A DNA stretch of 64,000 bases from an uncultured Micavibrio sp. (GCA_964531715.1 CAZHEE010000002.1:97676-161675); one strand, 5' to 3'. Shown: positions 6,226 through 56,961, numbered from the stretch's first letter. A program made the numbers and translations. The notes: generated from the letters alone by a model not told the origin.

Positions 6226-6230
6226 TTATG

Positions 6231-10052: not shown

Positions 10053-10145
10053 GAAAATAAGAATATCAGATTTATATCAGCACACATCCTGTTTTTTCAA
10101 CTTTTCAACGGGTAATTTATTCGTTAAATAGTTATCTAAAACTGG

Positions 10146-10222
10146 TTGTCATCCCGAGCGCAGCCGAGGGATCTAATTACTAAATAGATCTCTCCACGCG
10201 CTGCGCTTGGTCGAGATGACAA
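10146..10222. repeat. Palindromic element family C, copy 1 (77 bp)
   Basis: TTGTCATCCCGAG...GGGATCT...AGATCTC...CTCGAGATGACAA-type nested palindrome. It is the reverse-complement relative of 13173..13260 and lies just downstream of the clpB stop. Confidence 0.8.
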
Positions 10223-10240
10223 TTTATGAAATTTTCAGCA

Positions 10241-12838
10241 TTATGCCGCTTGGCTGTTCACCTTTTCGCCTTTGAAGGATAAATCGTTGCCGTCGTAAGC
10301 GACATGCACAATCATATTATCCGTAATCTCCCCTTTAAGCAGAGCCTCGGCCAGCGGATTTTGAAGCTCGCTTTGAATGACCCGTTTTAAAGGTCGCGCA
10401 CCATAAGCAGGGTCGTATCCTTTATCTGCAAGAAACGCCAAAGCCTTCTCATCCAGCTCAATTTCGATTTGGCGATCTTCAAGGAGCTTCCTCAAACGCT
10501 TGAGCTGTATCTCGACAATTTGCGCCATCATTGCGCGTTCCAACCTACGGAACAACAATATATCATCCAGACGATTGAGAAATTCCGGTCTGAAATAGCC
10601 GCGAACTGCCTCCATCACGCCCTCGCGGACATCCTCAACATCTTCGCCCTCTTTCTGATTGACCAGCAAATCCGCACCGATATTCGATGTCATAATCAAA
10701 AGCGTATTGGTGAAATCAACCGTCCGGCCTTGCCCATCGGTCAGCCGCCCGTCATCCAAAACCTGAAGCAGGACATTAAATACATCCAAATGCGCTTTTT
10801 CAATTTCATCGAACAATATGACTTGATAAGGCCTGCGCCGCACCGCCTCGGTTAACACGCCGCCTTCCTCATACCCGACATAGCCGGGCGGTGCACCAAT
10901 CAAGCGCGATACGGAATGCTTCTCCATAAACTCACTCATATCAATGCGCACCATCGCGGTATCATCATCGAATAAAAATTCCGCTAAAGCCTTTGTAAGC
11001 TCGGTTTTCCCGACACCGGTCGGCCCCAAAAACATGAAGGAGCCAATCGGACGATTCGGGTCTTGCAAGCCTGCGCGAGCGCGGCGGATCGCATTTGATA
11101 CGGACATAATTGCCTGATCCTGCCCCACCACGCGTTTTGCCAAGGCCGCCTCGAGGTTGAGCAGTTTTTCTTTTTCACCCTCAAGCATTTTGGACACGGG
11201 AATCCCCGTCCATTTTGCAATGACTTCGGCAATATCCTCATCTGTCACTTCCTCATTAATCATCGCGGATGTTGACAAATGGCTCGCCTCCTCGACCTTG
11301 GCTTCCAGTTCAGGAATTTTACCGTAAGATAACTCCCCGGCCTTTGCCCAATCATTATCACGCTCGGCACGTTCAAGCTCGGCACGGGCTTTATCCAGCT
11401 CCTCTGCCCATTGCTGCGCCTTGTTCAGCTTTTCTTTCTCCGCCTGCCATTGCGAAGTGAGGTCTGCCGATTCTGATTCTAGGGCGCTCAAATCTTCTTC
11501 CAGCTTTTTCAAGCGGTCTTTTGACCCTTGATCTGTTTCTTTTTTCAGGGCTTCACGTTCAATTTTGAGCTGAATAATCTGCCGATCAAGCGCGTCCAAA
11601 GCTTCTGGCTTAGAGTCAACCTGCATCCGCAAGCGTGCCGAGGCTTCATCAATTAAATCAATCGCCTTGTCGGGTAAAAAACGATCCGTGATGTAGCGAT
11701 TGGAGAATGTCGCCGCGGAGACAATCGCCGCATCCGTCACGCGCACACCATGGTGAAGCTCGTATTTCTCTTTCAAGCCACGCAGGATTGAGATCGTATC
11801 TTCAACCGTCGGTTCGCTGATAAAGACAGGTTGAAAACGCCGTGCCAGTGCCGCATCTTTTTCAATATATTTGCGATATTCATCCAAAGTCGTTGCACCG
11901 ACCATGTGTAGTTCACCCCGTGCCAATGCAGGCTTCAACATGTTTCCTGCATCCATCGCGCCATCGGTTTTCCCTGCGCCGACAAGCGTATGAAGCTCAT
12001 CCAGAAACAGAACGACTTCGCCCGCGGCTTCTTTAACCTCATCAAGCACACCTTTCAAGCGTTCCTCGAATTCCCCGCGGAACTTCGCCCCTGCAATCAG
12101 TGAGCCCAAATCAAGAGCCATTAATCGCTTGTTTTTCAGGCTTTCAGGCACATCACCATTGATAATACGAAGCGCGAGCCCTTCCGCAATTGCGGTTTTT
12201 CCCACACCCGGGTCGCCAATGAGTACAGGGTTATTTTTGGTTCGGCGCGATAGCACCTGAATAGTGCGGCGAATTTCCTCATCACGCCCGATGACTGGGT
12301 CGAGCTTCCCACTTCGCGCCACTTCTGTTAAGTCACGCGCATATTTCTTAAGCGCATCAAATTGATCCTCGGCACTTGCGGAATCAGCCGTACGACCTTT
12401 ACGGCGGTTATTGATGGCTTGGTTCAAATGCTGATCATTCACGCCGCTATCTTTTAACGCGGCGGAGACTTCCGTTTTCTTCGCCATAATCATGGCCTGC
12501 AACAAACGTTCGGTTGTGATAAAGCTGTCGCCTGCTTTTTCCGACAATACGCGTGCCTCGTCTAAAATCTTGGCAAGGTCATTGGACATACGCAATCCTT
12601 GTGCGCCTGCGCCTGTCACCTGAGGGAGTTTCGCGAGATTTTTATCAAGGATGGCTCGCAATTTTTGTAAATCACCACCAGCGGCGGTTACGAGGGAGTC
12701 CGTTACATTCTGATCATCATCTAGCATCACGCGGAGCAAATGTTCAGGCTCTAGCGATTGGTTGTCTTTCCTGAGCGCGAGTGTTTGCGCCGCCTGAACA
12801 AAGCTTCTCAGCTTTTCCGTCATTTTTTCGAAGTCCAT
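10241..12838 (-). CDS. clpB: ATP-dependent chaperone ClpB
   Basis: Two AAA+ modules ([15 protein letters not shown] and [15 protein letters not shown]) with a long coiled-coil middle domain. Start set at [10 protein letters not shown] (12838). Confidence 0.95.
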
Positions 12839-32567: not shown

Positions 32568-32644
32568 GCGCCCGTAGCTCAACTGGATAGAGCGTCTGAC
32601 TACGGATCAGGAGGTTGAGGGTTCGAATCCTTCCGGGCGCGCCA
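32568..32644 (+). tRNA. tRNA-Arg (anticodon ACG)
   Basis: 77 nt. Acceptor GCGCCCG/CGGGCGC, anticodon stem TCTGA/TCAGG, loop CTACGGA, T loop TTCGAAT, encoded CCA. Confidence 0.9.
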
Positions 32645-40536: not shown

Positions 40537-41508
40537 ATGCTTAATCCGTTTCAGGCCATGCAAAAGGCAGTGGACATCGTTAATGACAGTGAGCATATCA
40601 AAAATAAAATTGCCGCCTGTTTGTTTCAAACATCACCGTCATCCTCCGACTTGATCGGGGGATCTTCTTCCGAGGGGAATCCTTTGGTCAAGCCAAAGGA
40701 CGACGTTTACATAGCGCGATATAATCATCGCCCTGACAGACTAAAAAACAAGCTCTCACCCGATAAGCGTATAGGTGACAGCAGCCAGTTCCTCCATGCC
40801 GAGGTCGCCTGCATCTTCGCCGCTGACTTTCCGACTGAAGGCGCAAGCCTATGCATCACTGACCCGTTTTGCCCGAATTGCGCGAAAGCCATCAGCGAGG
40901 CGGGGATAGCCCATGTTTATATTGACCATAAAGGTATTGAGAAAGATTTTTTTGTCCGCAGAAGAGATGTGTTTGAGGCCTTGTCACTCAATATTTTGAG
41001 GCAAGAAGGCATTGGTGTTGCCATTCTTAATCGTAAAAAAAGAACATATCAAATAGTGCTTGAACCACAAAAAATTTCTAAAAAAGAAACAGATTTAATT
41101 ATTTTAAAACAATCAGATAATTCAATTTCATTATCTGATTTATTAAAGAAAAATAAAGCGTTTTATCCTGATAAAAATTTCGCGATTGCTTTCATCAAAG
41201 ATAGAGAAGATCAAATTTGCGCTTTTACTATATTTGAAAAATCTTATGATAGCCTTCACGATGTTAATCCATCCGACAAATACAGTGTGATGATTGACCC
41301 CGTCAACCGCCTCCTCTATCACTGCGCGCGCCATGGCTATCAAATTTTGAATCAAGAGATAGCAACAAATATCACCCCCTCGAACCGCGCAATCGTGAAT
41401 GCAATCGGTTATAATATTCACAAGATTATAAGCACTTGGCATGATACAGAGGGCAGTAACCGCAATATTTTAAACGATTTGGATATAATCTCTGTTAAAT
41501 CTTGCTAA
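40537..41508 (+). CDS. Cytidine/deoxycytidylate deaminase-like zinc-binding protein with a C-terminal extension
   Basis: 323 aa. HAEVACI ... DPFCPNCAKAI (H-A-E / PCxxC zinc motif). Residues 34-56 are encoded by a palindromic insert. Confidence 0.6.
   Translation: MLNPFQAMQKAVDIVNDSEHIKNKIAACLFQTSPSSSDLIGGSSSEGNPLVKPKDDVYIARYNHRPDRLKNKLSPDKRIGDSSQFLHAEVACIFAADFPTEGASLCITDPFCPNCAKAISEAGIAHVYIDHKGIEKDFFVRRRDVFEALSLNILRQEGIGVAILNRKKRTYQIVLEPQKISKKETDLIILKQSDNSISLSDLLKKNKAFYPDKNFAIAFIKDREDQICAFTIFEKSYDSLHDVNPSDKYSVMIDPVNRLLYHCARHGYQILNQEIATNITPSNRAIVNAIGYNIHKIISTWHDTEGSNRNILNDLDIISVKSC
40637..40705. repeat. 69-bp (23-codon) palindromic insert, family C-like, in frame in the deaminase-like gene
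   Basis: Left arm CGTCATCCTCCGACTTGATCGGGGGATC. The right arm contains a perfect 8-bp hairpin TCCTTTGG-tcaag-CCAAAGGA followed by CGACG. Encodes PSSSDLIGGSSSEGNPLVKPKDD. Confidence 0.55.
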
Positions 41509-43570: not shown

Positions 43571-45316
43571 ATGAGTTGGATTAATCCGTTTTCAAAATTA
43601 TCAGGCCTGTTATCCACGCCTTTATTACCTCAAAACACGTCAGCCCTCAACAATATACAAGCGATTGCAGAAAGCCTTCCCGGTAGCCTTCAAACAGATA
43701 ATAACAGGTTTCGGATTGAAGGACAGATTGCAACCATCCTTAAAAGCGGGCAAGCAATTTTCCAGACAAAACAGGGAGATATACAATTCCGCTTTGACGG
43801 TAAATTACCACAAAATATTCAAATAGGCGCAAAAGCAATTGCAAGTAATTTATCAACATCTTCTGCTAACTTATTTAGTTTAAATGTTATTTCTCAAAAT
43901 AAGAGCGTTCATCCTGCACCATCTCTTCCGCCTGCGACTGTAACAAATCTCAATACAGGTTTATCAAGCCAAAATGATGTGCAGGCCTTACAAACAGTCG
44001 GGAAACAGGCTAGCCAAGCAAATCAGACTATTCTTCATGCATCAGGTTCGCTCAAAACAGGACAGGCCTTAACGCTTACCCCCCTGCCGCAAACTCTAAA
44101 CTCGATAGGTGCGATTGCATCCCAATTTACTAAAAGCAATGCTGATACTGTTATGAACACCAAACTTAATACAGTCCCTCAAAATATACCTTCAAATTCG
44201 TTATCAGGACTCATGCCCACCATCCGTTTTTCAAATCCCGATACTGTTTCTTTTTTAGTAAGTGGTGACAGAACCATAAGGCCGATTATTCAAAATTTAG
44301 CGGTTCACAATGTTGCCCCGTCATCTACGCTTGTTTCAACTGATCGCACGATAGCGACCGCAAATACTGCCGATGCGCGTATTGCGCTGATTATTGAACC
44401 GCTTTATATCAGCCCGCCTATCAGCGCAAATGCGACAATCTCCGCCACATTAAATAAACCATCCATGCCATTATCATTGATGGATATAAAAGCGGGTCAA
44501 TTAATGACCGTTTCTACCGGCTATCAAACCGCTGACAATCAACCCATCGTTCAAATTATGAATGGTCATGGCGCGGCACAACACTTTGCGACACTCAATT
44601 ACCCAACAAAGGCTTTACCGCAAGGTACAATAATCAGTTTCACGCCGATTAGCTCAAAAAATTCAACGCCATTTTCAATGTCTGCGCCGTCATCTATACC
44701 AAGTCAATGGGATGATTTGCATGGCTTGCTTCCGCCCGCCCTCATGCAGGCTGTCTCAAATACCATGCCCGCAATTGGCGGTAATACGGCGCAATTTCCC
44801 GCTGCGGCGTTGTTGTTTTTGGCGGCGGCCAATGCAGGTGATATATCGGCATGGCTGGGTCCAAAATCATCGCAAGCTCTGCGCGATACTCATCAAGGCA
44901 AAAGCCAGCCAAACATGCAAAAACTGCTGTCCGATTTACTTGGCAATGCCAAAGGGCGCACACCTGACAGGCTCGACCCGCCTCAAGTGCAAGGACAAGA
45001 TTGGCGAGGATATCAGCTCCCGCATCTACACGGTCAGGATTTGCACCTCGCAACCTTATGGGTACAACGGGAACATATAGACCATAATTCAGCTTCTGAA
45101 ACTCACAAAACACAACGATTTTTTGTTGATTTGCATTTAACCCGTATGGGGCAGGTTCAGTTAGATGGCATGATAAATGTTGAGAAACAATCATTCAATC
45201 TGGCTATTCAAACCGATAAGCCTTTAAGTGACGAACTAATCTCAAAATTACAGGCACATTATGCAAGGCTTCTTGAAGGTCTTGGATATCATGGAAATTT
45301 GCGTTTTAAGCAGTGA
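43571..45316 (+). CDS. Ser/Thr/Gln/Pro-rich protein, possibly a FliK-like hook-length control protein
   Basis: 581 aa, low complexity. The C-terminal block RFFVDLHLTRMGQVQLDGMINVEKQSFNLAIQ resembles the FliK C-domain pattern. Located after flhF-flhG. Confidence 0.35.
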   Translation: MSWINPFSKLSGLLSTPLLPQNTSALNNIQAIAESLPGSLQTDNNRFRIEGQIATILKSGQAIFQTKQGDIQFRFDGKLPQNIQIGAKAIASNLSTSSANLFSLNVISQNKSVHPAPSLPPATVTNLNTGLSSQNDVQALQTVGKQASQANQTILHASGSLKTGQALTLTPLPQTLNSIGAIASQFTKSNADTVMNTKLNTVPQNIPSNSLSGLMPTIRFSNPDTVSFLVSGDRTIRPIIQNLAVHNVAPSSTLVSTDRTIATANTADARIALIIEPLYISPPISANATISATLNKPSMPLSLMDIKAGQLMTVSTGYQTADNQPIVQIMNGHGAAQHFATLNYPTKALPQGTIISFTPISSKNSTPFSMSAPSSIPSQWDDLHGLLPPALMQAVSNTMPAIGGNTAQFPAAALLFLAAANAGDISAWLGPKSSQALRDTHQGKSQPNMQKLLSDLLGNAKGRTPDRLDPPQVQGQDWRGYQLPHLHGQDLHLATLWVQREHIDHNSASETHKTQRFFVDLHLTRMGQVQLDGMINVEKQSFNLAIQTDKPLSDELISKLQAHYARLLEGLGYHGNLRFKQ

Positions 45317-45369
45317 AATTTAAGCCTTGCATTCATCACCTTAAAGCATTAAATATTTGGTTGAATTAA

Positions 45370-45444
45370 GGGTTGTTAGCTCAGGGGTAGAGCACTTGCT
45401 CGACACGCAAGGGGTCACTGGTTCAATCCCAGTACAACCCACCA
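45370..45444 (+). tRNA. tRNA-Val (anticodon GAC); position 33 reads C
   Basis: 75 nt. Acceptor GGGTTGT/ACAACCC, anticodon stem CTTGC/GCAAG, loop TCGACAC, T loop TTCAATC, encoded CCA. Confidence 0.85.
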
Positions 45445-45448
45445 TTTT
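45430..45448 (+). repeat. attL: 19-bp direct repeat CAGTACAACCCACCATTTT (3' end of tRNA-Val)
   Basis: Identical 19-mer recurs at 55129..55147. Confidence 0.85.
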
Positions 45449-45612
45449 CACTTTTCACACCATCTCACAAAGCCCTATATTTAGCCTAAAAACCTTGATT
45501 TTATTATATTCTTATTATATCATAATTTCATAACGTTTCGCGATGCGTCACTACAACACGCCCATTTTAAGGGTATAGTTTAGGGGCATCCTGAAAACAT
45601 TGGGGGTATCGT

Positions 45613-46848
45613 ATGAAATTAACGAACATAGAGTGTAAGAATGCGCCGCTTAAAAACAAGCCTTATAAGCTTGCTGATGGTGGTGGACTGTATCTTTTAA
45701 TCAATCCAAACGGATCAAAACTATGGCGTTTGAAGTATTATTTTCTTCAAAAAGAGAAAACTTTCGCCATAGGGCAATACCCCATTATAACCTTGAAAGA
45801 AGCTAGAGAAGCCCGTGAAGATGCGAAAAGGCTTATTACCAAGGGCACTGATCCCTCAAAGAATAAACAGGAAAACAAAACAGCCGCAATCAGAAACGTT
45901 GAAAATACATTTAAGGCCGTTGCATTAGAATGGCACGAAACCAAGAAAAGCGGCTGGTCGGATAATTATGCCCGTAAAATGATGCAGGGATTGGAAAAGA
46001 ACCTGTTCCCCTTCATTGGCAATCGCCCTATCAAAGACATTACACCGCCTGAATTACTAGACGTACTGCGAAAGATTGAAGGGCGCGGATCGTTGGACAT
46101 TGCGGGACGCACAAAGCAGATATGCGGACAGGTATTCCGTTATGGCATCCAAACGGGCAAATGTGAATGGGATATTGCCTTAAACCTAACAGGAGCATTA
46201 AAGACGCATAAGAAAGAGCATTTCCGTACATTAGAGACTAATCAACTGCCGGACTTCCTGCGTGCCTTGGAACGGAATGAAGCGCGGATATTTGAACGCA
46301 CACGCCGCGCCGTTTATTTATCCCTCTATACATTTTGCCGCCCAAAAGAAATTCGCATGGCACGATGGCAAGATATCGACTTTGATAACGCTCAATGGTC
46401 AATCCCTGCGGAGATCATGAAGATGAAAAAACCGCACCTTGTGCCACTATCTAAACAGGCATTGGATGTTTTACACGCCCAACGTGAAGAATTAGAGGGC
46501 GTTAAGACAGAATGGGTATTTCCTTCACAGGTGCGATTGCGTAACCCTATGAGTGATGGCACGGTCAATAAAGCGATTAAACGCCTTGGATTCGGTCAAG
46601 ATATGGTTGCCCATGGTTTTAGAGCCTTGGCACGCACTGTGATTGCAGAAAAAATAAAATACTCTGCCGAAGTTATTGAAAAACAGCTTGCCCATAAAAC
46701 AAATAATCCTCTTGGCGAAGCGTATGACAGAACACAGTTTATCGAAGAGCGTACAAAGATGATACAACATTGGGCAGATTATGTCGATGCTGTAGCACAA
46801 GAAAATAAAGTTATTCCTGTCAATTTTGGAAAATTGCTTAATGAATAA
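45613..46848 (+). CDS. int: Tyrosine integrase, P4-like (N-terminal DUF4102-type arm-binding domain)
   Basis: 411 aa: KLADGGGLYLLINPNGSKLWRLKY, and catalytic region HGFRALARTV...LAHKTNNPLGEAYDR. Confidence 0.9.
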   Translation: MKLTNIECKNAPLKNKPYKLADGGGLYLLINPNGSKLWRLKYYFLQKEKTFAIGQYPIITLKEAREAREDAKRLITKGTDPSKNKQENKTAAIRNVENTFKAVALEWHETKKSGWSDNYARKMMQGLEKNLFPFIGNRPIKDITPPELLDVLRKIEGRGSLDIAGRTKQICGQVFRYGIQTGKCEWDIALNLTGALKTHKKEHFRTLETNQLPDFLRALERNEARIFERTRRAVYLSLYTFCRPKEIRMARWQDIDFDNAQWSIPAEIMKMKKPHLVPLSKQALDVLHAQREELEGVKTEWVFPSQVRLRNPMSDGTVNKAIKRLGFGQDMVAHGFRALARTVIAEKIKYSAEVIEKQLAHKTNNPLGEAYDRTQFIEERTKMIQHWADYVDAVAQENKVIPVNFGKLLNE

Positions 46849-47473
46849 AGATTACCTAGACGCAAGAAATATTGAAGACATTATCGCCGAGAGAGATTTC
46901 CTAGAAGAACAGCATAAGCTTTGTAAAAATTCTGAAAAATTCAAATTACATTTTGTTTTTGAAGCCTTGCGGATAGTTTTAAGTGAAGCGGAAGAATCGA
47001 GTTTTCCTAATGTGGATCTCGATTGGATTTGGGAAAGTTTATATACACAGCTTTTTAAAAAGGCTAACAAGTCGCAAGAAAATTATATTTTAGGCATGTT
47101 TATTTTTGCACTTACGAAAAATGGAAGCCCCGCATTACCAGCTATTCAGGCTGTTGCGGATTGGACACATAAAGCTGAAACAACTTGCAGAAGTTCGTTT
47201 TATGAAATAAAGAAACTGTCGAATATTGAAGAAGTAGGCTTCTGGTTTACTACAAAAACGCTATGCAAAACTGATTTTTGTATTTTGTTTGAAAACCAAA
47301 CAAGAATATTTTCATCCAAGAATAAAAAAACACAGCAAGCCTTCGAAAAACTTAAACAATTATCCCAATCTAAAGATAGTCAAAATCTCTTATCTACTGG
47401 CATAAACACAACAAAATCACAATTTTTATCAAACGAGAAGATACGAGAACATATCAAAAATCGGTCAAAATAA
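46841..47473 (+). CDS. Hypothetical island protein
   Basis: ATG at 46841 overlaps the int stop by 8 nt. About 210 aa with no recognisable motif. Confidence 0.4.
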   Translation: MNKDYLDARNIEDIIAERDFLEEQHKLCKNSEKFKLHFVFEALRIVLSEAEESSFPNVDLDWIWESLYTQLFKKANKSQENYILGMFIFALTKNGSPALPAIQAVADWTHKAETTCRSSFYEIKKLSNIEEVGFWFTTKTLCKTDFCILFENQTRIFSSKNKKTQQAFEKLKQLSQSKDSQNLLSTGINTTKSQFLSNEKIREHIKNRSK

Positions 47474-47562
47474 ACCTGACTAGTCAAAAAATTTTTGCGT
47501 AGTTTTCAGTTTTTCGCGCACATGTTCTTATGATTTCAGACAATCTAAGAAAGGAACATACC

Positions 47563-47793
47563 ATGTCTGAATTTAACACCACACAACTGCCAGAAACAGG
47601 CTATTTACGGCAATCACAACTCATACCGCATATTATACCATTCTCAGCAGCAACGCTATGGCGCGAGGTTAAGGCTGGACGTTTTCCTGCCCCGGTAAAG
47701 CTATCTTCACGCATTACCGCTTGGCGTGTTGAAGGCATTCGCGAATGGATGGGAAACCCGTTAAAATTTTGGGATCTTCAAAGTGCCTATTGA
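47563..47793 (+). CDS. alpA: AlpA-family (MerR-like HTH) phage/island regulatory protein
   Basis: 76 aa: GYLRQSQLIPHIIPFSAATLWREVKAGRFPAPVKLSSRITAWRVEGIREW. RBS AAGGAA upstream of the ATG at 47563. Confidence 0.75.
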   Translation: MSEFNTTQLPETGYLRQSQLIPHIIPFSAATLWREVKAGRFPAPVKLSSRITAWRVEGIREWMGNPLKFWDLQSAY

Positions 47794-48448
47794 AATCAAA
47801 AAACCGATTATACCAAACACTATTTATGGTCATCTTGCCATCTTAAAACTGTGTCAGATTGCAGGATATGATTATTATCTAGGAGATGCCGCAAAAAGAA
47901 CATTAATTGTCTTAGCGGGCTTTAGCGGCACTGATGGTATGTGCTATCCCTCTATATCTCAAATTGCAAAAAATTTAGGTGTTTCTCGTGCAGCAGTGCA
48001 TAGACAAATCAATATTCTAGTGAAACAAAACTATTTGAAAGCAGAAGGACGCTATTGTCCAAAAACAAAAAGAAGAAAAACCAATATATTTATCTTTAAC
48101 ACTGATTTGGCGAGACAGTATTCTTCATATCCTGAAATATTTTGTGAGAGTAATGTAACCTCTGTGGTTACATTCCTTGTAGCCGTATTATATTACATGG
48201 ATTGTTACCCCGATATGTTACAGGGGCATGAAACCTCAAAGAGTTACACAAATAAAACAGATAAAATAAAACAAAATAAAGAAACCAACTTGAATAAAAC
48301 AGATGATTTGCTTGTCGGGAGGAAAAAGTTGCACGCATACGCATGGGAAAAACAAAAATCTCGTCAAGAGGAGAGTAATGTAAGCGATGAAATGAAAAAT
48401 AGCTTTAAAGATTTAGACTATGAATTATCCAGTCATTTTAAATTCTAA
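47783..48448 (+). CDS. Winged-helix DNA-binding protein (possible island replication/regulation protein)
   Basis: 221 aa. HTH-like SISQIAKNLGVSRAAVHRQINILVKQNYLK. GTG start overlapping alpA. Confidence 0.45.
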   Translation: MPIEIKKPIIPNTIYGHLAILKLCQIAGYDYYLGDAAKRTLIVLAGFSGTDGMCYPSISQIAKNLGVSRAAVHRQINILVKQNYLKAEGRYCPKTKRRKTNIFIFNTDLARQYSSYPEIFCESNVTSVVTFLVAVLYYMDCYPDMLQGHETSKSYTNKTDKIKQNKETNLNKTDDLLVGRKKLHAYAWEKQKSRQEESNVSDEMKNSFKDLDYELSSHFKF

Positions 48449-48567
48449 ACAACTTGTAGAATTCTCGTTATCGATGAGGCGTGACACTAAAACTATGAAT
48501 GAAAAAGATGCAATTGAATATTGCGTACAAAAATATCAGGAAAAATTAGAACAAGAAATTAAGAAAC

Positions 48568-49176
48568 GTGTGGATACATGAACTTTTTTATTCAGAATTA
48601 CCACATTATTTCGGTAAAAAAATGCAGTTAGTGACACACAGCAGTAAATATGGATATCGCCGTATGACGGTTGAGGATCTGGATTGTATCACTGTCGCAG
48701 ACTGCAAAAAAGGTTACTGTAATATTTTGTCCGGCCATCAGCGCATTTTAATATCAAAACCATCGTTATTTTCAGATGCACTGTTTATAACATTACAAAC
48801 ACAGAATTTCGACTATTTGCAGTCGATTTACCTTGAAGAGACAAAACAGCCTTTTGGTGGATCACGGCTATGGCTAAAATGCCCTGATTGCGACAGACGA
48901 TGTAACAAGCTTTATTGGCATCAATCACTATTCAGTTGCCGTGTTTGTCTTGGTTTATCTTACCGAAGCCGCCAGAGTTCATTTTTGAATTATCAGGAAC
49001 ACAAAGCTTTGAAAATTGAGCATTGGCTCGGTGAATTTTGCCACTACATGACACGCCCATTATCGGAACAAATACCATCACGGCCTAAATATATGCGTAA
49101 AAATACATATCAGAGATTGATTGTCGAACTGAATGATTGCAAATCTGGGATACAGAGCAGAAATGCCCTAATCTAG
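48568..49176 (+). CDS. Hypothetical zinc-ribbon protein
   Basis: 202 aa. CPDCDRRCNKLYWHQSLFSCRVCLGLSYRS (CxxC-N17-CxxC). Start codon uncertain. Confidence 0.45.
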   Translation: MWIHELFYSELPHYFGKKMQLVTHSSKYGYRRMTVEDLDCITVADCKKGYCNILSGHQRILISKPSLFSDALFITLQTQNFDYLQSIYLEETKQPFGGSRLWLKCPDCDRRCNKLYWHQSLFSCRVCLGLSYRSRQSSFLNYQEHKALKIEHWLGEFCHYMTRPLSEQIPSRPKYMRKNTYQRLIVELNDCKSGIQSRNALI

Positions 49177-49575
49177 TTTTGGTAAATCATCAATTCCACG
49201 ATTGCGTAAATATTTATTCATCATCAATTCAGTATCATTTGTTTCATCACTGCCATAATCTAGATCCGGAAAACGGCACATAGCCATTCGCTGGTATTTA
49301 GAACAATTTGTTTCAATAGATATGTCTGTAACATCATTTTCTTTGCAATAAACAGGCTCTATACATCTGATATCTATTCCTTCTAGTGCAAGATTTTCCC
49401 TAAAATATTTCTCAAATGTTTTAATATCCAAAGTGTTTTGAGGCTCGATGCTTTGTTTCTCTTTAAAAACAAGGAAATAATAATCGACAATAAACTGGGG
49501 ATTAAAACTGTAACGCTTAGCTAATTTTCGTGATCTTACTTGCCCTACAAATATATTATAAATTAATCTAATCAT
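49168..49575 (-). CDS. Hypothetical soluble protein (downstream gene of the two-gene cassette)
   Basis: 135 aa. The ATG overlaps the upstream gene's stop (ATGATTAG). RBS AAAGG. Confidence 0.5.
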   Translation of the reverse strand: MIRLIYNIFVGQVRSRKLAKRYSFNPQFIVDYYFLVFKEKQSIEPQNTLDIKTFEKYFRENLALEGIDIRCIEPVYCKENDVTDISIETNCSKYQRMAMCRFPDLDYGSDETNDTELMMNKYLRNRGIDDLPKLD

Positions 49576-49963
49576 GATTACCTTTCTTAAATATTAGAAT
49601 TTCTTTTTTGATGCTAAAAACAATGTGACTGACTATGACAACAGAAAAAATGCGATAAATATACACCCATGCTGGAACATTTTGACCAGATACTTCTAGT
49701 TGCCATGGATTTATTAGAGTATAAGTCAAAATGACGGTCACCAAAGATGCCACTGGATACGTTATTTTAGAAAAGTGTTTATATGTTTTTCCCAATATCC
49801 CAAGCAGTAAGCCTGTTATAAATATAGAAGGATCTAAGATAAAAGCAAAAATGCTGCCCATCATTACAGCTGCCGCATGCTTATCAACAAAAAATATTAC
49901 AAATGAAAATATAACAATTAATGGAAAAAATAGCAAATGAGGTCTCTTAAAATTCTTTAGCAT
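49568..49963 (-). CDS. Hypothetical small polytopic membrane protein (upstream gene of the cassette)
   Basis: 132 aa from the ATG at 49963 (MLKNFKRPHLLFFPLIVIF...), preceded by the RBS TAAGGAG. Several hydrophobic segments. Confidence 0.55.
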   Translation of the reverse strand: MLKNFKRPHLLFFPLIVIFSFVIFFVDKHAAAVMMGSIFAFILDPSIFITGLLLGILGKTYKHFSKITYPVASLVTVILTYTLINPWQLEVSGQNVPAWVYIYRIFSVVIVSHIVFSIKKEILIFKKGNHD

Positions 49964-49990
49964 GGTCTTTTTTCTCCTTATAATTAATAC

Positions 49991-50160
49991 GGCTACCAGA
50001 TAACTCTGGCAGCCGGGGAGTTTAGAACCATCACGTGAATGGCGTGACGTATTGACGCCATGCGCTTTTATATTTCGCCACCTCCCCGACCATAAGTCGA
50101 GAGGCAACACAGATAACGGCAGTGTCTAGAATGCCGCACGTGAAGGGTTCTAATGCCCTA
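49991..50160 (-). other. G+C-richer structured non-coding region (candidate leader RNA or recombination/binding site)
   Basis: 10-bp hairpin at 49991..50014. Hairpin ATGGCGT/ACGCCAT at 50039..50061. Long-range TAGAACC..CACGTG / CACGTG..GGTTCTA pairing. GGGGAG/CTCCCC pairing. Direct repeats CAGATAAC(N)GGCAG. Confidence 0.4.
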
Positions 50161-50263
50161 GATACGAAATCACCGCATCTATTCAGATAATCGCTTTGTG
50201 AAATCTTTAAGTCAACCTAAATTAAGCATATTAAATTAATTTGGTTTAAAACAATATACGTAA

Positions 50264-50404
50264 CATCAACCGCCTGAATTTCTAAATGCCGTTCGTCAAA
50301 ATTTAGGACATTCATCTATTGATACGACGCTATCCAGTTATGGGCGATTATCTTCGTATGACCAGCGCAGGATTATCGCCGAAAACAAAGGGCAATTCGC
50401 TTGA
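50264..50404 (+). pseudogene. C-terminal remnant of a second tyrosine recombinase
   Basis: Translates to ...NAVRQNLGHSSIDTTLSSYGRLSSYDQRRIIAENKGQFA*. LGHSSIDTT..Y is the box II / catalytic Tyr region. No upstream catalytic domain is present. Confidence 0.65.
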
Positions 50405-50653
50405 TCGCATGGGAGGGGCAATTTAACCGATGCCCCTATTCCACAAAAAATACAAACATGTCACCATAACATCATCAAATATCAAAATAATAGAATCCTA
50501 TGACCGAAGAACAAAAACAACGCCTTGACCGCAATATAAATTTGTAAGTTTTATCTATGAAAACATTACTGCTTAAAAATCGGAAAGCATGCTGTAAAAT
50601 AAAAGCCGCATCATTAACTATTTCTTTAATGTTTACATATTATATTACTTTTT

Positions 50654-51229
50654 ATGGAGGAATATTACACACAAAAAGACATTGCGGATCAGTGGCAAAA
50701 AATATCGGATGAAGCGATAAAGAAAGCCGGTGAAAGCAAAAGCGATTTTCGTGCCGATGCAGTTTATATAGGAGGTATGACGGTCATTGGGGGCGGGTTG
50801 ATTGCCACCTTAAATGGTGGTCAATTATCATCTCTGTTTCTTGCGGCGGCGGCATTGACTGGTGTTTTATATTCTCATGTAAAACATACATATAAGAAAA
50901 AATATTATGAGGCATTTGCCTCTCATGCATTGGATCAAAAAGATAATAGCATTATTTTGCAATCAGATAATCCATTGACACTTCCAAGATTTGATAAGGA
51001 AAACAAAGAATTTGGAATAAACTATAAACATCTTACAAGCGGTTTAAAAAGTATTTTCAGCCTTAGAACAGTAATTGTCGCGGCAGTGGTTGGCACATCG
51101 GTTATGGCATATATGCATCCAGATAAAGAGCAACCAGATATATTACGACCAGAAGAAAAGGAAACCAATGCTACCCAAGGATCCTTTTCGGCACCGAAGA
51201 CATCTCTGCGTCCTGTCCCTCATCCATAG
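50654..51229 (+). CDS. Hypothetical membrane protein
   Basis: 191 aa. Two central hydrophobic helices (GGMTVIGGGLIATL..LFLAAAALTGVLY) and a third near residue 145. Confidence 0.4.
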   Translation: MEEYYTQKDIADQWQKISDEAIKKAGESKSDFRADAVYIGGMTVIGGGLIATLNGGQLSSLFLAAAALTGVLYSHVKHTYKKKYYEAFASHALDQKDNSIILQSDNPLTLPRFDKENKEFGINYKHLTSGLKSIFSLRTVIVAAVVGTSVMAYMHPDKEQPDILRPEEKETNATQGSFSAPKTSLRPVPHP

Positions 51230-51413
51230 AAACAGTATTTTCAAACCAATCGATAATGGATGGAATATTTTTACCGACATAAGCACATCCGCCAACAAAG
51301 ACTGCCGCTATTGCAATAATAGCCAGAAATTCTTTGACCTGCATATGGGGCACACCATCATCTTTGAGACGGTCATTAAAAGCATCTTTTGCCTTATTGA
51401 TAAAACTTTGCAT
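51171..51413 (-). CDS. Hypothetical single-pass membrane protein
   Basis: 80 aa with one TM (FLAIIAIAAVFVGGCAYV). Convergent with, and overlapping, the 3' end of 50654..51229. Confidence 0.3.
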   Translation of the reverse strand: MQSFINKAKDAFNDRLKDDGVPHMQVKEFLAIIAIAAVFVGGCAYVGKNIPSIIDWFENTVSMDEGQDAEMSSVPKRILG

Positions 51414-51549
51414 GATGTTTTATCCTATATAATATGAAAAAAGTCAACCTTTTCTAATAGAGTGTCAGTAAAAATTGAGTGCATAAAACATAATTAATTC
51501 TTATAAGTAAAAGTAGTTTGCATTATCTATCATAAAAAGGATTTATAAA

Positions 51550-51819
51550 ATGAATGAAATACCAGAAATGATTAGCCGCAATGGCGACCCTATTGAAATA
51601 GCTGAAATGAAAAATTTCTTTAACTACGCAATAAAAGAAAGGGTAAACCAATATATCACGGAAATATTTTACGATTCAAAAAGCAATCTTTGTGAAGTAA
51701 AACTTTCTGAATTGGTTGTTTATGGCGACCCTATCTATCAAAAAATTCATAGTCTTGCAAAAGTTACGATCAAACAATTCAGTATTTTAGACCAAATTGA
51801 CCATTCTGTATTTTCTTGA
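51550..51819 (+). CDS. Hypothetical protein
   Basis: 89-aa ORF with RBS AAAGGA upstream. No motif recognised. Confidence 0.35.
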   Translation: MNEIPEMISRNGDPIEIAEMKNFFNYAIKERVNQYITEIFYDSKSNLCEVKLSELVVYGDPIYQKIHSLAKVTIKQFSILDQIDHSVFS

Positions 51820-51829
51820 TACGTCAATA

Positions 51830-54800
51830 TCACTTTGGTAAAAAGTCTATTTTGTCTATCTCTTGCATTACGCTTGCGGTGTCGCGGAGGGCGATTACTA
51901 TGCGTTGGTAGTGCATAATGTCATCAACCGATAGATTGCGCCCTTTGCGGTCTTTGAGCCATTTTTGCGCGGGTTGGTATCCACCGATATAAAAGTCCCA
52001 TGCACCTTGTGGCACTTCGCCGAAATATTGGGTTTCGTTGATATAGACTTTGCCGTCTTCATATCGTGGCTTGACAACCTCGTGATCGCCATCAATGGGA
52101 TAGGTTGTGATGGGTATATCTAGCGCGGATGATTCCATCAAATGCAGGGCACGAAGTTTTGCCCCTTGCTCAACCAGCGCATTATAACTTTTAACATCAT
52201 TAGGAAACGGAATACGCGGAAAGTCCGATTTTAAAAATTCGGCATAGCGTGCGCGGTATGCAGACGCATGAAGCACAGCATAAATATAATCAAACAGGCT
52301 TTCCGGCGTCACATCGGGTATGGCCATTTTAATCTTGGCGTATATTTTTGGATCGAAATTCGGAACTTTCTGCTCTACCCCATCCATGAGTAATTCATAG
52401 CGATAGAGGGGGAAAGTACAACTAATTTCAGATGTTCTGTTTGAAACAAGTGAACTTTCAACAATTCCCTTATGAATAAAAACATGGTGAAAATCCGATG
52501 ATTTTTGCTGTTTGGAGACGTTCAATCCGATATTGCCCTTATTTAGCATATGCTTCATTACTTCGCCTCTAGGCATACAATGAAACCCTTTTGATTTGCC
52601 TGTGAAATAAGTCCACTTATTATCAAATGGTCTATATGCAATTTTTTGAATATTTTCTGGATCAAGATTTGTATCTTTTAGTTCTTTTTGTGCTAAATCT
52701 ACTTTCCAATCACGGGCATCTTTACCCAAACTATATTTGGCTCTTGCATCCTCAACAGGCAAAGAAGAAAAATCATGAATAGTATTTAATAAACTTTCTT
52801 TTGTTTCGTAAATTGTAAATTTGTCACGCGCGGTTACAATGCCGACAGAATTACACGGGAACATTTTATCGAGAGAAAAACCTTTCTCATATTCGGCCAG
52901 AGTTTTAAAATCCTTGGGAACCATAAAATATTGAGGGTTTGCGGGGTTTAATACGTTCCATTTTATGTTTTGGATATTTGTTTTTTCCAATTCGTTATAT
53001 TTAGATTGACGATGACCCCACACATCAACATGGTGAATGATTGCCAAATCCTTACTTTTTTTATCGCTTTTGACCGCAATCATAATTGCAACACCAGCTT
53101 GAATATCAAAAATATTTTGATCAATGTCGCCCGATGGCGTAGTCTCTTTCTTTTTAGAATTACCATGAAGGTCGATGATATAAATATCATCAAAAGTATT
53201 CATTAAATGCCAACGCATCCCACGGAATGTTGGATTATCTAAATATGAATGGCTTGTAATATAAGCCAAAACGCCTTCGCCATTTTTTTCGACGTAATGC
53301 TCGCCCATGCGAATAAATTTGGCGTAATCATCATTAAGCCATTTGGAATTTTTCTCCTGTAACTTAATTTTTCCACCAGGCTCTTTCTTATAATCATCCA
53401 TAAGGGACATAATCCAATCACCCTTGTTTGAGCTTTCACCACTATAAGGCGGATTCCCAAATGCTACCATGATCGGCATATCGCGTTTGATACGGCTGGC
53501 CTCGTTTGCTTCCCTTGATAACCATGATGCGAATAATGTATCGGCATCGGGGTGGTGTTCCTCCAGCGCGTTTGTCAGATACACGCCAACCCTTGGTGGA
53601 TTGTTCGGGTTGGATGGTTTATATCCTGTTTCCTGTAGCAATAAATCCAATTTCATGTGGCACATGGCGTAGGAGGCCATGAGTAATTCAAAACCGTGCA
53701 GACGTGGCAACAAGTCGTTTTCGACGTAACTGCTCCATATACCTTGTTGTCCTTGATATTTTTGCCAGATTTGTTTCACGGCCTCCGCCATGAATGTGCC
53801 TGTCCCCGTTGCAACGTCCAGTAATTGCACCTTGTGGACTTCTATTTCATCCTTAATCTTTCCCTTTTTACCAACGCGGTCAGATTCGACCTTGATTTTG
53901 ATTTTGGATTTATCGGCAATGCCGTTTGGTAAATCGAAATGGATTTTTAAAACATCATCAATGGCGCGAACAATGAAATTAACGACTGGTTCGGGCGTGT
54001 ACCAAACCCGCGTGCCTTACGCAAGGATTTATCGTATTCGGCCAAGAATGTTTCATAGAAATGCAGGATAGGGTCATTCTGCCCCGTTGCCGTTCCAAAA
54101 TCCTTTAATACCGCATCCAAATCGGAAAATAAGAAGACTTCGCATAGTGCATCAACAATCCAAACGACTCGTTCATCCAATTCCGACCCTGCCACGTATA
54201 AAAATAGCTGGCGTAAGAATGGGTTTGATTTTGGGATGAGTAGTAACGCTTCGCTTCGTGAGAAATTATCGGGCGTTGTATCGTGCAGGCGTGCCGTGAA
54301 CAAGCCATAGGCGATTGTTTGGGCATAGACATCGGCAAATTGCTCTTCGTCCATGTCATGCACAAGGATATTTTGAAATGCCTTTAATTGATCTTTTAAT
54401 GAACTATCCGCTTCATCCGTTAAAACCAGCATAAAGACATGTTTCATCAATTTGGCCTTTTGCGCCATCATGGATGCCAGTTTCTTTGCCGATTTAATTG
54501 TTTGCCCTTGGAATGATGCAAAATCGATTAAGAGTGTTTTAAGGCGGTCATAGTTTTCAGGGATGGGTTGGATGGTATCGCCAACAATTTCGGCAATTTG
54601 AACCACCTCAACTTTTTTCACCATGAAGGTAAAAGCGAAATTCTAAATAATCGGTCAGGACAAGGTTATCGAGTGACTCAAGGTATCGTTTTAATTGATC
54701 CGTTTTTTCAGTTTTGGATAGGTCAATGCCAACATCCTTGGCCTCCAAATACCCAACATCAATTTTACGCCTGTGCAGGATAAAATCAGGCGCACCACAT

Positions 54801-54946
54801 TTTATATGCGCTGGATCATTAATTGCCGTTACATCGTCCAATAATTCCTCTAATAGGGTTTTTAACGCAGGCCGATAGGCGTGTTCACGCGCTATGCCGG
54901 TTTTGAATTGTTTTTGAACATCCTCAATGTATCTTTGTATCGGCAT
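51830..54946 (-). pseudogene. Single-chain Type IIG-like restriction-modification enzyme (PD-ExK nuclease + N6-adenine methyltransferase + C-terminal specificity domain), disrupted by two frameshifts
   Basis: Three consecutive ORFs: 54946..54608, 54624..53947 and 53830..51830. N-terminal nuclease motif APDF...YLEAKD. MTase motif I LLDVATGTGTF and motif IV FGNPPYSGES. C-terminal GGYQPAQKWLKDRKGR block. Frame breaks at the T6 run 54613..54618 and the C3 run 54007..54009. Confidence 0.75.
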
Positions 54947-55128
54947 ATAATCTTGTCTTTATAACTGTCGTTGGATATATTCACCTTATATCGGACAATC
55001 AGATATGTCGATTCTGATGCTCGTTTTACTCATAAAAATATCAAATAGGGGCACAATTGGGGGTATAAAAATAAAAGAACCGATAGTAAATGTAATAATA
55101 TCAGCATGATACTTCAATTAACCAGTAG

Positions 55129-55147
55129 CAGTACAACCCACCATTTT
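55129..55147 (+). repeat. attR: 19-bp direct repeat CAGTACAACCCACCATTTT
   Basis: Identical to 45430..45448. It is preceded by a degenerate T-arm-like stretch (CTTCAATTAACCAGTAG). Confidence 0.85.
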
Positions 55148-55158
55148 TAATTAACACG

Positions 55159-55896
55159 ATGACAATTTCTCATATTCAAGGACCGAACGGAACGCTAGCC
55201 TATAGCTACAGTGAAGGGGATAAACGCCTTCCGTCTATCATTTTTTTATGCGGTTTTAAGTCTGATATGATGGGTAGCAAGGCGCAATGGCTCCATGAAT
55301 ATTGCGCTAATAATAACCGAACATATCTGAGATTTGACTATTTCGCTCATGGGCAATCAGAAGGAAATTTTAAAGATTTTACGATCGGTAAAGGTTTGGC
55401 AGATACTTTATTTATGATTGAAAATTTTATCGATCAGCCCGCTATCCTTATCGGCTCCTCCATGGGCGGTTGGATTGGGCTTCGTGCCGTCCAACTCATA
55501 CCGCATCTCATTCACGGTTTTATCGGTATAGCGGCGGCGCCTGATTTTACCCGAAAAATCTATAACTCTCTTGATGATGGGCATTTAGCTCAACTGGCTG
55601 AGCATGGTTATATTAAGGAAGATAGTGGCTATGATGAGCCTTATATCTTCACTCGCGCTTTATTTGAAGATGGTGAAAATCATTGTTTGCTTGATAAGAA
55701 GATTGAGTATGATGGATATGTACATTTGCTTCAGGGAAAGCAAGATAGCTCCGTTCACTATGATACTCCAGGTTTAATTAATCATTGCTTTGATGGACGT
55801 GCGAAAATCACACTTATACATGACGGTGACCATAGTTTATCCAGGCCGCAAGATCTGGACGTTCTAAAACAAGCGATTGAAGAAATGACGTCTTGA
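55159..55896 (+). CDS. Alpha/beta-fold hydrolase
   Basis: 245 aa. Nucleophile elbow GSSMGGW and C-terminal DGDHS. Confidence 0.7.
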   Translation: MTISHIQGPNGTLAYSYSEGDKRLPSIIFLCGFKSDMMGSKAQWLHEYCANNNRTYLRFDYFAHGQSEGNFKDFTIGKGLADTLFMIENFIDQPAILIGSSMGGWIGLRAVQLIPHLIHGFIGIAAAPDFTRKIYNSLDDGHLAQLAEHGYIKEDSGYDEPYIFTRALFEDGENHCLLDKKIEYDGYVHLLQGKQDSSVHYDTPGLINHCFDGRAKITLIHDGDHSLSRPQDLDVLKQAIEEMTS

Positions 55897-55936
55897 CTTC
55901 ATATAGGTAATTCACGATAACTTGTGATGTTTTTGA

Positions 55937-56026
55937 GGAGGGGTGGCCGAGTGGCTTAAGGCGCACGCTTGGAAAGCGTGTTTAGGGTCAAACCTAACGT
56001 GGGTTCGAATCCCATCCCCTCCGCCA
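55937..56026 (+). tRNA. tRNA-Ser (anticodon GGA)
   Basis: 90 nt. Acceptor GGAGGGG/CCCCTCC, anticodon stem CACGC/GCGTG, loop TTGGAAA, long variable arm, encoded CCA. Confidence 0.9.
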
Positions 56027-56043
56027 TATTCTAACTTTAAAGT

Positions 56044-56961
56044 TTAGCCAAAATCGTCATAAATAGCCTTAATGCCGGATTTGTAATCGGGATATTTGAG
56101 TGTAATGCCTAGCTTATCCTTGATTTTTGTATTATCGACACGTTTGTTATCTTTATAAAAGCTTGCCGCCATAGGGGACATGTCCGCCTCCTCATAATCA
56201 ATCATTGGCGGGACAGGCTTTCCCAATAGTTTACATGCATAATCAATCAGCTCATGACTCTGCGCCGGATTATCATCCGCCAGATTATAGATATCGCCCG
56301 GTTTCGGTTGTTTCATTGAGGCAATCAAAACCTGTACAATGTCATCGACATGAATGCGGTTAAAAGCATGCCCATCCTTTTTTATCCGTCTGGTCACACC
56401 TGCGCGAACCGTATCAAGGGCGGATCGACCCGGGCCGTATATCCCTGAAAGCCTGAAAATATTAATCGGAATTTGGGCTATGCGGCGCATCTTCAGCCAC
56501 TGAACCTCGGCACGCGCACGCTTGCTTCCGCGTTCTGATGTCGGGCGGCGTTCGCTTTCCTCATCGACCGTTCTGCCATCCTGATTACCGTAGACGGATG
56601 TTGAGGAAAGCAAGCCAATCCATTCAATTGAAGTAACCTGCAAGATATCTCTGGCATGGGTTTGAAATATGATATCCCCGCCTTTATTGGGTGGAACGGA
56701 AATCAGAATATGAGTGACGCCTTCAAAAGCCATAACAGGGTCAGTAAATGGTATTTTATCGGAAAAAAGAAACGCCTTTACCCCTTTTTTACGCATTTCT
56801 TTCAGCTTATCTTTATCGGTTGTAGTGCCGATAATGTCCCAATCCTCAGTATCTTCCTGTAATTTTGTAGCGAGAGCCTCGGCAACATAGCCGTAACCGA
56901 AACAAAAAAGTTTCTTTTTTTGATTATGTGCATCTTCGATTATGTCCATTTCTTTTTCCAT
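56044..56961 (-). CDS. NAD-dependent epimerase/dehydratase (SDR) family protein
   Basis: 305 aa. Rossmann-like FCFGYGYVAEALA and the extended-SDR pattern SSTSVYG. Confidence 0.6.
   Translation of the reverse strand: MEKEMDIIEDAHNQKKKLFCFGYGYVAEALATKLQEDTEDWDIIGTTTDKDKLKEMRKKGVKAFLFSDKIPFTDPVMAFEGVTHILISVPPNKGGDIIFQTHARDILQVTSIEWIGLLSSTSVYGNQDGRTVDEESERRPTSERGSKRARAEVQWLKMRRIAQIPINIFRLSGIYGPGRSALDTVRAGVTRRIKKDGHAFNRIHVDDIVQVLIASMKQPKPGDIYNLADDNPAQSHELIDYACKLLGKPVPPMIDYEEADMSPMAASFYKDNKRVDNTKIKDKLGITLKYPDYKSGIKAIYDDFG

Follow-up and report, generated by a model that had tools for sequence, protein, structure and literature searches.

A putative satellite-like integrative island at a tRNA-Val gene of an uncultured Micavibrio sp.

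What kind of element is the 9.7-kb block that lies between two copies of a 19-bp sequence at the 3' end of a tRNA-Val gene in an uncultured Micavibrio sp., and what does it carry? The question arises in a 64,000-nucleotide stretch of this genome (GCA_964531715.1, CAZHEE010000002.1:97676-161675; hereafter the window), in which the block spans positions 45430-55147. A previous reading of the sequence alone, made without database searches (the sequence-only reading), had described the block as a small satellite-like or defence-type island. Cultured Micavibrio are predatory bacteria, and we know of little published work on the mobile elements and phage defence of this group. Our analysis leads us to favour, with moderate confidence, an integrative island that depends on a helper, probably replicates, has a satellite-like backbone and may have formed by fusion of two tandem elements. 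This agrees with the sequence-only reading, and is favoured by the occupancy of the site in relatives, by a gene order resembling that of the PICMI satellites of Vibrionaceae, by the distribution of a zinc-ribbon family encoded in the island and by matches to defence families in sister islands. As such, the island is of a known and routine kind, a tRNA-borne integrative island with defence cargo.

The features that define the insertion site are as follows.

45370..45444, plus strand: tRNA-Val(GAC), the integration target (ARAGORN; Rfam tRNA, 64 bits)
45430..45448, plus strand: attL core, the left copy of CAGTACAACCCACCATTTT (exact repeat)
55129..55147, plus strand: attR core, the right copy of CAGTACAACCCACCATTTT (exact repeat)

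The 19-bp sequence occurs exactly twice in the window, both times on the plus strand, and the count stays at two when up to two mismatches are allowed; 100 dinucleotide-preserving shuffles yielded no match. Since the tRNA ends at 45444, the left repeat comprises its final 15 nt plus 4 nt, so that the claim of exact 19-bp attachment (att) repeats at tRNA-Val holds. A longer version of the repeat (29 nt, 86% identity) is probably a product of chance. The block has the make-up of a tRNA-targeting integrative genomic island: a direct repeat bounds it on either side, the left copy being a tRNA 3' end, a tyrosine integrase gene starts 165 nt from attL, beside the tRNA-proximal end, its composition is atypical (38.0% G+C against 44.6% elsewhere in the window, 6.6 points lower) and, as described below, the occupancy of the site varies among relatives.

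An identical 75-nt tRNA was found in four metagenome-assembled genomes (MAGs) labelled uncultured Micavibrio or Alphaproteobacteria. In the closest of these (L009; CAYGLI010000003.1, 3589-8000) the synteny to the left is kept, in the order FleN (88.6% identical), a homologue of the flanking 581-aa protein and tRNA-Val, and the tRNA is followed by an Int_N-type integrase, a 221-aa protein, a Dcm C5-methylase and a BpuJI_N/NOV_C endonuclease. In the other three the tRNA is followed by yet another integrase (L012), by two-component regulator genes with no integrase (L011) or by an unrelated 584-aa gene (L010). Because content differs after an identical tRNA, we take the block to be an insertion at an integration hot spot, and because the tRNA-Val of the closest MAG holds a different restriction-modification (RM) island, the site appears to be a defence hot spot of the clade. 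The opposite outcome, the same block conserved in distant relatives with no repeats, would have spoken against mobility and was not what we found. The proposed comparison with an unoccupied tRNA-Val succeeded in part: L011 provides a site with no integrase, and the sequence that follows its tRNA (TTTTTATC) resembles the right att flank of the window (TTTTTAAT), unlike the attL flank, but a strict empty site from the same species was not recovered. On the right side, a relative (L006) carries a 60%-identical hydrolase followed by tRNA-Ser, as in the window, with a different gene upstream of the hydrolase and no tRNA-Val within the 431 bases available there. As a separate observation, a CheY-like response-regulator gene lies between the 581-aa gene and tRNA-Val in two relatives (L009:3100-3447, L011:1023-2060), one of which, L011, additionally has an OmpA-like gene before the tRNA; the corresponding part of the window (45317-45369) has neither gene.

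The window sequence is also found within a 71.8-kb contig of JGI metagenome 3300040801, and the island was assembled independently from samples 3300040788 and 3300040789, in contigs that are 100% identical across the island. Against the window these contigs carry eight single-nucleotide polymorphisms (SNPs; 7 + 1), all in the flanking 581-aa gene; one of them (L002) covers 5.4 kb of the island without a single SNP and 1.4 kb of flank with 7, a contrast more suggestive of a recent arrival or sweep than of an old resident. The eight SNPs themselves form two tight clusters, at window positions 44023-44263 and 44809.

The recombination genes and sites of the island are listed here.

45568..45609, plus strand: candidate arm-type integrase sites (AAGGGTAT, TAGGGGCA, ATTGGGGGTAT), just upstream of int
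45613..46848, plus strand: P4-family tyrosine integrase, 411 aa, intact (Pfam, NCBIfam)
46841..47473, plus strand: integrase-overlapping gene, 210 aa, all-helical, with an 8-nt overlap with int (ATGAATAA)
47530..47793, plus strand: AlpA-family small helix-turn-helix (HTH) protein, putative excisionase or activator
55046..55066, plus strand: candidate arm-type sites of the right end (TAGGGGCA-N2-ATTGGGGGTAT)

Profile searches bore out the proposed P4-type integrase and AlpA. The integrase carries the Pfam domains Arm-DNA-bind_3 (3.9e-25), Phage_int_M (1.7e-33) and Phage_integrase (4.6e-21) and scores 282.9 bits against NCBIfam PRK09692, under the family's curated 434-bit cut-off; the small HTH protein scores 29.8 bits against Pfam Phage_AlpA (gathering score 21) and matches the PHROG excisionase/regulator families 2790 and 66. 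The two ends of the island share short motifs: ATTGGGGGTAT has two exact copies in 64 kb, one within each end and in the same orientation, and TAGGGGCA adjoins both, in the layout TAGGGGCA-N10-ATTGGGGGTAT at 45581-45609 on the left, where a third copy of AAGGGTAT lies upstream. Given the Arm-DNA-bind_3 domain of the integrase, these motifs are candidate arm-type sites to which it would bind.

The gene that overlaps int has five homologues (P0007, P0009, P0010, P0025 and P0057, all found with HMMER) and gave no match in a tblastn search of a phage collection. Its predicted structure (AF2, pLDDT 81.6) has no significant match in the PDB. Its homologues in the loci L024 and L025 likewise stand behind a tyrosine integrase, though one of another family, and the junction is either direct or, in L025, an 8-nt overlap; in PICMI satellites, which have the order int, iolg, alpA, up1, prim, up2, the int-overlapping gene (iolg) and alpA are both needed for excision (PMC10803314). 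This coupling to integrases of different families, taken with the PICMI requirement, suggests that the gene encodes an integrase accessory factor. The protein that follows the integrase of L009 was examined as a further member and proved unrelated to this family. In L024 and L025 we see sister islands in which the integrase family is another one and the int-adjacent gene is kept; their cargo matches the PADLOC families RmrA and dCTPase (dCTP deaminase; L024) and PDC-M60A (L025).

Downstream of alpA, in the same orientation, lie two further genes, the winged-helix and zinc-ribbon genes that the sequence-only reading had named.

47783..48448, plus strand: winged-helix (HTH_36) protein resembling phage replication initiators (Pfam HTH_36, 6.4e-14)
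48622..49176, plus strand: zinc-ribbon protein (CPxC...CRxC), member of a large unnamed family

Both identifications were confirmed, by the Pfam HTH_36 match and by the CxxC...CxxC pattern. For the HTH_36 protein, 16 of the 20 PHROG matches belong to DNA, RNA and nucleotide metabolism, mostly as replication-initiation or O-like proteins (best match phrog_270, 3.2e-11), and a set of 5.8 billion proteins holds no close homologue. The part of this gene that encodes a linker contains three copies of AAATAAAACA(G/A)AT at 48250-48304 (TRF scores 32-34), which weakly suggest iterons; their position would recall the origin inside lambda O. An open reading frame (ORF) of 35 codons separates the HTH_36 and zinc-ribbon genes.

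In a word-indexed homologue search the zinc-ribbon and HTH_36 proteins, and the cargo protein sol135 described below, matched only themselves, so that an HMMER search with the concatenated cargo against 1.84 billion representative proteins was needed to find their families. That query as a whole gave about 2,700 representatives at E <= 1e-3 and, among the matches listed, most fall on the zinc-ribbon protein. The family members are about 200 aa long and share the consensus FGGxRxWFxCPxCxRR..LY..FxCRxCxxLxYxSQ..RPKGMHxxTYxRL, with C87, C90, C106 and C109 invariant in the family alignment (A1). No Pfam family matched at the threshold used, and fold searches of the PDB and of BFVD (viral) with a confident AF2 model (pLDDT 84.6) gave no match.

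Where this family occurs bears directly on the nature of the island. All 101 matches of the window protein in a tblastn search of the phage collection lie in Streptococcus satellites; a second family member matches 20 Streptococcus records which, among the matches listed, are Javan satellites and one 10.5-kb 'phage' of satellite size. On plasmids, the family is found mostly on small non-mobilizable replicons. In each context inspected the zinc-ribbon gene comes last in a unit that also includes a small HTH gene and a replication protein: HTH_17, a REP_ORF2-G2P-like protein and the zinc ribbon in Phaeobacter pP18_i; RepM, a YagK_YfjJ/G2P-like protein and the zinc ribbon in Psychrobacter pA19P1; a primase or DnaB_2 protein, FIG01115461 and the zinc ribbon in Javan satellites; and HTH_39, a helicase-like protein, an uncharacterised protein and the zinc ribbon in pDCAR2. 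The AlpA/winged-helix/zinc-ribbon unit of the window fits this plasmid and satellite pattern, which is our main reason for calling the island replicative. Like the Javan satellites and the small Psychrobacter and Rhodobacterales plasmids, the island has the family at the end of its replication region, with about 28-35% identity to their members; what differs is the replication protein, which is primase or DnaB_2-like in Javan satellites, of the YagK_YfjJ/REP_ORF2-G2P kind in the plasmids and HTH_36 in the island. Members of the family could therefore serve as markers of phage satellites and small plasmids, and may act as accessory factors in replication. Within Streptococcus satellites themselves (L016, Javan54 9088-10368; L028, Javan620 5752-6868), the zinc-ribbon gene, often unannotated, always follows the approximately 205-230-aa 'FIG01115461', with which it forms a conserved pair downstream of a primase or replication gene. 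The proteins that precede the zinc-ribbon gene in Javan54 and pA19P1 were compared with the HTH_36 protein of the window and are not homologous to it.

None of the island proteins matched a capsid, terminase, relaxase or primase family in Pfam, PHROGs, NCBIfam or PADLOC, as anticipated by the sequence-only reading, which had reported no capsid, terminase, conjugation or primase genes. Among known elements, the gene order is closest to that of PICMI. Both are small islands with short direct repeats (17 bp in PICMI, 19 bp here) that run from int through an int-overlapping gene and alpA to a replication gene and one or two uncharacterised genes, with no capsid or packaging genes, and PICMI cargo can likewise be anti-phage. 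The likeness to iolg is one of position, both genes overlapping the 3' end of int (by 8 nt in the island). Where the published PICMI model makes int, alpA and a primase (DUF3987/DUF5906) all mandatory (PMC10803314), the island has no such primase and, in its place, the winged-helix initiator-like and zinc-ribbon proteins. It also differs in its target (tRNA-Val as against a site downstream of fis), in its size (9.7 kb as against about 6 kb), in its Micavibrio-like host and, where induction, replication and packaging of PICMI fall to a helper phage, in having no known helper. With Gram-negative PICIs and P4-like satellites the island shares a P4-family integrase at a tRNA-type target, a co-oriented alpA downstream and then a replication module. 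The cryptic element CP4-57 of E. coli has the same arrangement, with a P4-family integrase by a tRNA-type target, alpA co-oriented downstream and a replication module. Unlike P4, however, the island has int and alpA only, with no match to psu, delta, sid or alpha (primase-helicase), and unlike PICIs it yields no match to pri-rep, terS or capsid-remodelling genes. Lacking a primase as well as capsid and packaging genes, it is not a PICMI, PICI or P4 element by the published definitions.

The right half of the island holds two features that bear on its history.

50264..50404, plus strand: candidate C-terminal remnant of a second tyrosine recombinase, 46 codons (..LGHSSIDTTLSSYGRL..; LGHSSIxTT..Y box)
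51830..54946, minus strand: Type IIG/IIL (MmeI/DrdV-like) RM pseudogene, split into three ORFs

The sole PHROG matches of the 46-codon ORF are integrase families (phrog_216, E 0.0023; phrog_1, E 0.056), and Pfam and PDB searches gave no match; the claim of a second integrase remnant is thereby sustained at weak to moderate strength. Such a remnant in the middle of the island suggests that the block may have formed when tandem insertions of two elements at this tRNA fused. That possibility depends on the remnant, as no internal att copy was seen: a search of the island for a degenerate core gave a best candidate with 5 mismatches, and none was accepted. A third copy of the TAGGGGCA 8-mer, inverted, lies 27 nt past the remnant (50431-50438, minus strand); it could be a relic of the attachment region of a second element, or it could have arisen by chance, about 1.3 copies being expected per window.

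The three ORFs of the RM gene match successive parts of PADLOC PDLC03610 in order. The frame runs 0, +1, 0, with an extra A in an A-run (54613-54618) and a lost G in a G-run (54007-54009), and when one A is removed and one G added in silico the result is a protein of 1038 aa that matches PDLC03610 end to end (1119.8 bits, positions 2 to ~1075), with an Eco57I-type methylase and a Type_ISP_C domain. Its relatives in the PDB are DrdV (7lo5, the best), LlaGI and LlaBIII. Like MmeI/DrdV-type enzymes, the repaired polypeptide combines nuclease, methylase and target-recognition parts; unlike them, the gene has an interrupted reading frame. An independent assembly (L005) shows the same two frameshifts, so that they are real mutations and not assembly errors, and with two of them the gene cannot make the full enzyme. 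The suspected broken Type IIG-like RM gene is thus disrupted by two single-base slips in homopolymer runs.

From these parts a mechanism can be proposed, in which excision, replication and helper dependence are predicted from gene content. The P4-family integrase would recombine the 19-bp cores, positioned by the arm-type sites (TAGGGGCA / ATTGGGGGTAT) within both ends. Excision should then create an attP junction of the form ..ACCAGTAG-core-CACTTTTCAC.. (extended, ..AACCAGTAG-CAGTACAACCCACCATTTT-CACTTTTCACACC..) and leave an empty attB of the form ..TCAATCC-core-TAATTAAC.. (extended, ..GGTTCAATCC-CAGTACAACCCACCATTTT-TAATTAACACGATG..). AlpA, and perhaps also the product of the int-overlapping gene, would give excision its directionality, as in PICMI satellites, and the excised circle would be copied by way of the AlpA/winged-helix initiator/zinc-ribbon operon, whose layout is that of small plasmids and Streptococcus satellites. 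With capsid, packaging, relaxase and primase genes all missing, the island must rely on a helper, most probably a phage, to spread between cells. The right half would constitute accessory cargo, made up of a Type IIG RM system that formerly protected the host, two small membrane-protein modules and a membrane/soluble gene pair, mem131/sol135.

Several observations weigh against this reading, and we treat both satellite status and current mobility as putative. The broken RM gene and the integrase remnant show decay. All five contigs, from three samples, hold the island in its integrated form, an excised circle or empty attB of the same species was not found, and a metagenome scan with the flanking hydrolase gave only distant relatives (60%, 39% and 36% identity). 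The replication-initiator assignment derives solely from the N-terminal winged helix, and the iteron-like repeats are weak. Apart from the integrase, the integrase-side genes (four of five) are near-orphans whose proposed functions follow from position; three matched only themselves in the word-indexed search, and the int-overlapping gene has just the five homologues seen with HMMER. The island also has neither a primase nor a helicase, which are, to our knowledge, mandatory in every described satellite family.

Much of this would equally be expected of a fixed, decaying remnant, that is, of one or two old tRNA-Val islands that have lost their function and no longer move, with att and int not yet degraded. 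The RM frameshifts shared by independent assemblies, the integrase remnant, the uniformly integrated contigs from three samples with no empty site found and the absence of transfer genes from profile searches are all in keeping with such an origin. We nevertheless judge it unlikely, since no difference has accumulated between the two 19-bp cores, five genes (int, the overlapping gene, alpA and the rep-like and zinc-ribbon genes) are intact and tightly spaced as an operon, matching arm-type motifs survive at both ends, and the lack of SNPs across 5.4 kb of island beside a flank with 7 in 1.4 kb (L002) does not suggest an old resident.

An integrative mobilisable element, excised and then moved not by a phage but by the conjugation machinery of another element acting on an unrecognised oriT, would also account for an excision module accompanied by no packaging genes, and the zinc-ribbon family is common on small plasmids too. 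This seems to us improbable, since no relaxase or mobilisation protein was matched, the plasmids that carry the family are typed as non-mobilizable in 18 of 19 cases for the window protein and in 21 of 24 for a second member, P0031 (the two lists overlap), the family occurs within the phage collection only in satellites, and the int/overlapping gene/alpA layout is that of satellites. That there was no insertion at all, the block being ancestral core genome and the repeat coincidental, draws on the missing same-species empty-site comparator and can be set aside as very improbable in view of an exact 19-bp repeat of the tRNA 3' end that is absent from 100 shuffles, an integrase that adjoins the tRNA, a G+C content 6.6 points below the rest of the window and nearest relatives that differ in content after an identical tRNA.

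Returning to the favoured integrative, satellite-like island, its cargo includes the minus-strand pair of genes and the structured leader that the sequence-only reading had described as a membrane/soluble cassette.

49168..49575, minus strand: sol135, soluble 135-aa protein, second gene of the cassette, with an 8-nt overlap with mem131
49568..49963, minus strand: mem131, 131-aa multi-pass membrane protein, first gene of the cassette
49990..50215, minus strand: structured 5' leader of mem131 (fold; Rfam RF02221)

The gene pair is as described, and the leader fold is far more stable than those of shuffled sequences (z = -5.1). mem131 was called as a 180-aa ORF, and its true start is the ATG at 49963, which is preceded by the ribosome-binding site AAGGAG. 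It has homologues in P0012, P0015, P0017 and the locus L018, and no match in Pfam, PHROGs or PADLOC; an IMG/VR scan with the mem131 alignment and a plasmid tblastn search were empty. sol135 has one homologue (P0008, 59% identity), which again follows a mem131 homologue, in L018; only there and in the window does sol135 accompany mem131.

The leader comprises a three-helix element resembling sRNA-Xcc1 (50090-50004), an 11-bp hairpin (50015-49990) and further conserved sequence upstream. The match of this element to Rfam RF02221 spans model positions 1-87 of 87 and reaches 34.1 bits, where the gathering score is 53; the E value is 0.007 in an 11.2-kb search (45000-56200) and 0.039 over the whole window. 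From its full-length, three-helix match we consider it a sub-threshold relative of sRNA-Xcc1. The leader is conserved upstream of one membrane-protein family in five metagenomic loci, the window and four others: ahead of mem131 homologues the element scores 34.5 bits (E 0.0016) in L023 and 26.4 bits, with an enlarged P2, in L021/L022, again over all 87 model positions in both, and L018 and L019 hold partial copies at contig ends, the hairpin of L019 being followed by U8. As MAFFT alignments of the leaders were out of register, helices were compared from independent folds of the three complete copies, too few for a formal statistic. Each copy folds into a P1 that encloses P2 and P3, followed by the hairpin. 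Compensatory changes are seen at position 4 of P1 (G-C/C-G) and position 2 of P2 (U-A/C-G), and the P3 stems change on both strands throughout (GCCAUU/GAUGGU, AAUCGU/GCGAUU, GCCGUUA/UAGCGGU). Four nucleotides of the P1 3' strand also belong to the hairpin, and a conserved upstream segment can pair with the 5' strand of P1, so that alternative folds are possible.

sRNA-Xcc1 is a small RNA (sRNA) of the integrons, transposons and plasmids of Xanthomonas. Published copies precede symE toxin genes in integron cassettes of that genus (bioRxiv 10.1101/2025.06.18.660453) and, in APSE phages, an ORF6N gene (bioRxiv 10.1101/2020.03.17.996009), and tandem copies are reported from a Xylella island. The leader resembles these in having the full-model three-helix fold, in lying within a mobile element and in standing directly upstream of a cargo gene. 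It differs in score (34 against 53 bits), in the bacterial lineage of its host, in its downstream gene, which encodes an uncharacterised membrane protein, and in an additional hairpin that separates the element from the ribosome-binding site and in L019 carries a U8 tail. That hairpin suggests a cis-acting leader, not a free sRNA, and the sRNA-Xcc1-like element would then control the membrane-protein gene. Expression of mem131/sol135 would probably be gated by the leader and the terminator-like hairpin after it. The occurrence of an Xcc1-like RNA before one membrane-protein family suggests that this mobile-element RNA can lead cargo genes, and provides a concrete system in which to study the function of the RNA family.

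A bolder proposal, which we think more doubtful still than a decaying remnant, is that the left half, with its AlpA, initiator and zinc-ribbon operon, is the first of a new family of primase-less minimal satellites or replicative islands and, separately, that the leader silences a potentially toxic mem131/sol135. The leader could in that case be a widespread cis-acting device, attenuator- or riboswitch-like, that keeps the cassette silent until a signal such as phage infection arrives. Were this true of the leader, mem131/sol135 would be an unrecognised abortive-infection or addiction module.

Three further cargo genes lie between the integrase remnant and the RM pseudogene.

50654..51229, plus strand: mem191, 191-aa membrane protein (family including P0005, 55%, P0011, P0014 and others)
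51171..51413, minus strand: p80, 80-aa membrane protein, convergent with and overlapping mem191 (P0013 is 70% identical)
51550..51819, plus strand: p89, 89-aa protein (phrog_29216, of unknown function, E 5.3e-5)

mem191 and p80 correspond to the small membrane proteins noted earlier from the sequence. A tblastn search of the phage collection with mem191 gave no match. The convergent, overlapping pair recurs within another mobile element (L029:686-1448), where its neighbours are a serine recombinase and the C-terminal end of a DNA methylase, which points to a portable module that travels near recombinases. The cargo had also been singled out as the best place in the window to look for defence genes; PADLOC upheld this for the broken Type IIG RM gene, but the uncharacterised cargo matches no known defence family.

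Two minor observations concern the window outside the island. A 500-bp patch at 41000-41499 has 34% G+C, against 45-53% in its neighbours. At 32568-32642 on the minus strand, Rfam reports a 'Plastid-ycf2 5'UTR' at 34 bits (gathering score 65.7), exactly antisense to tRNA-Arg, which is almost certainly an artefact of tRNA-like structure.

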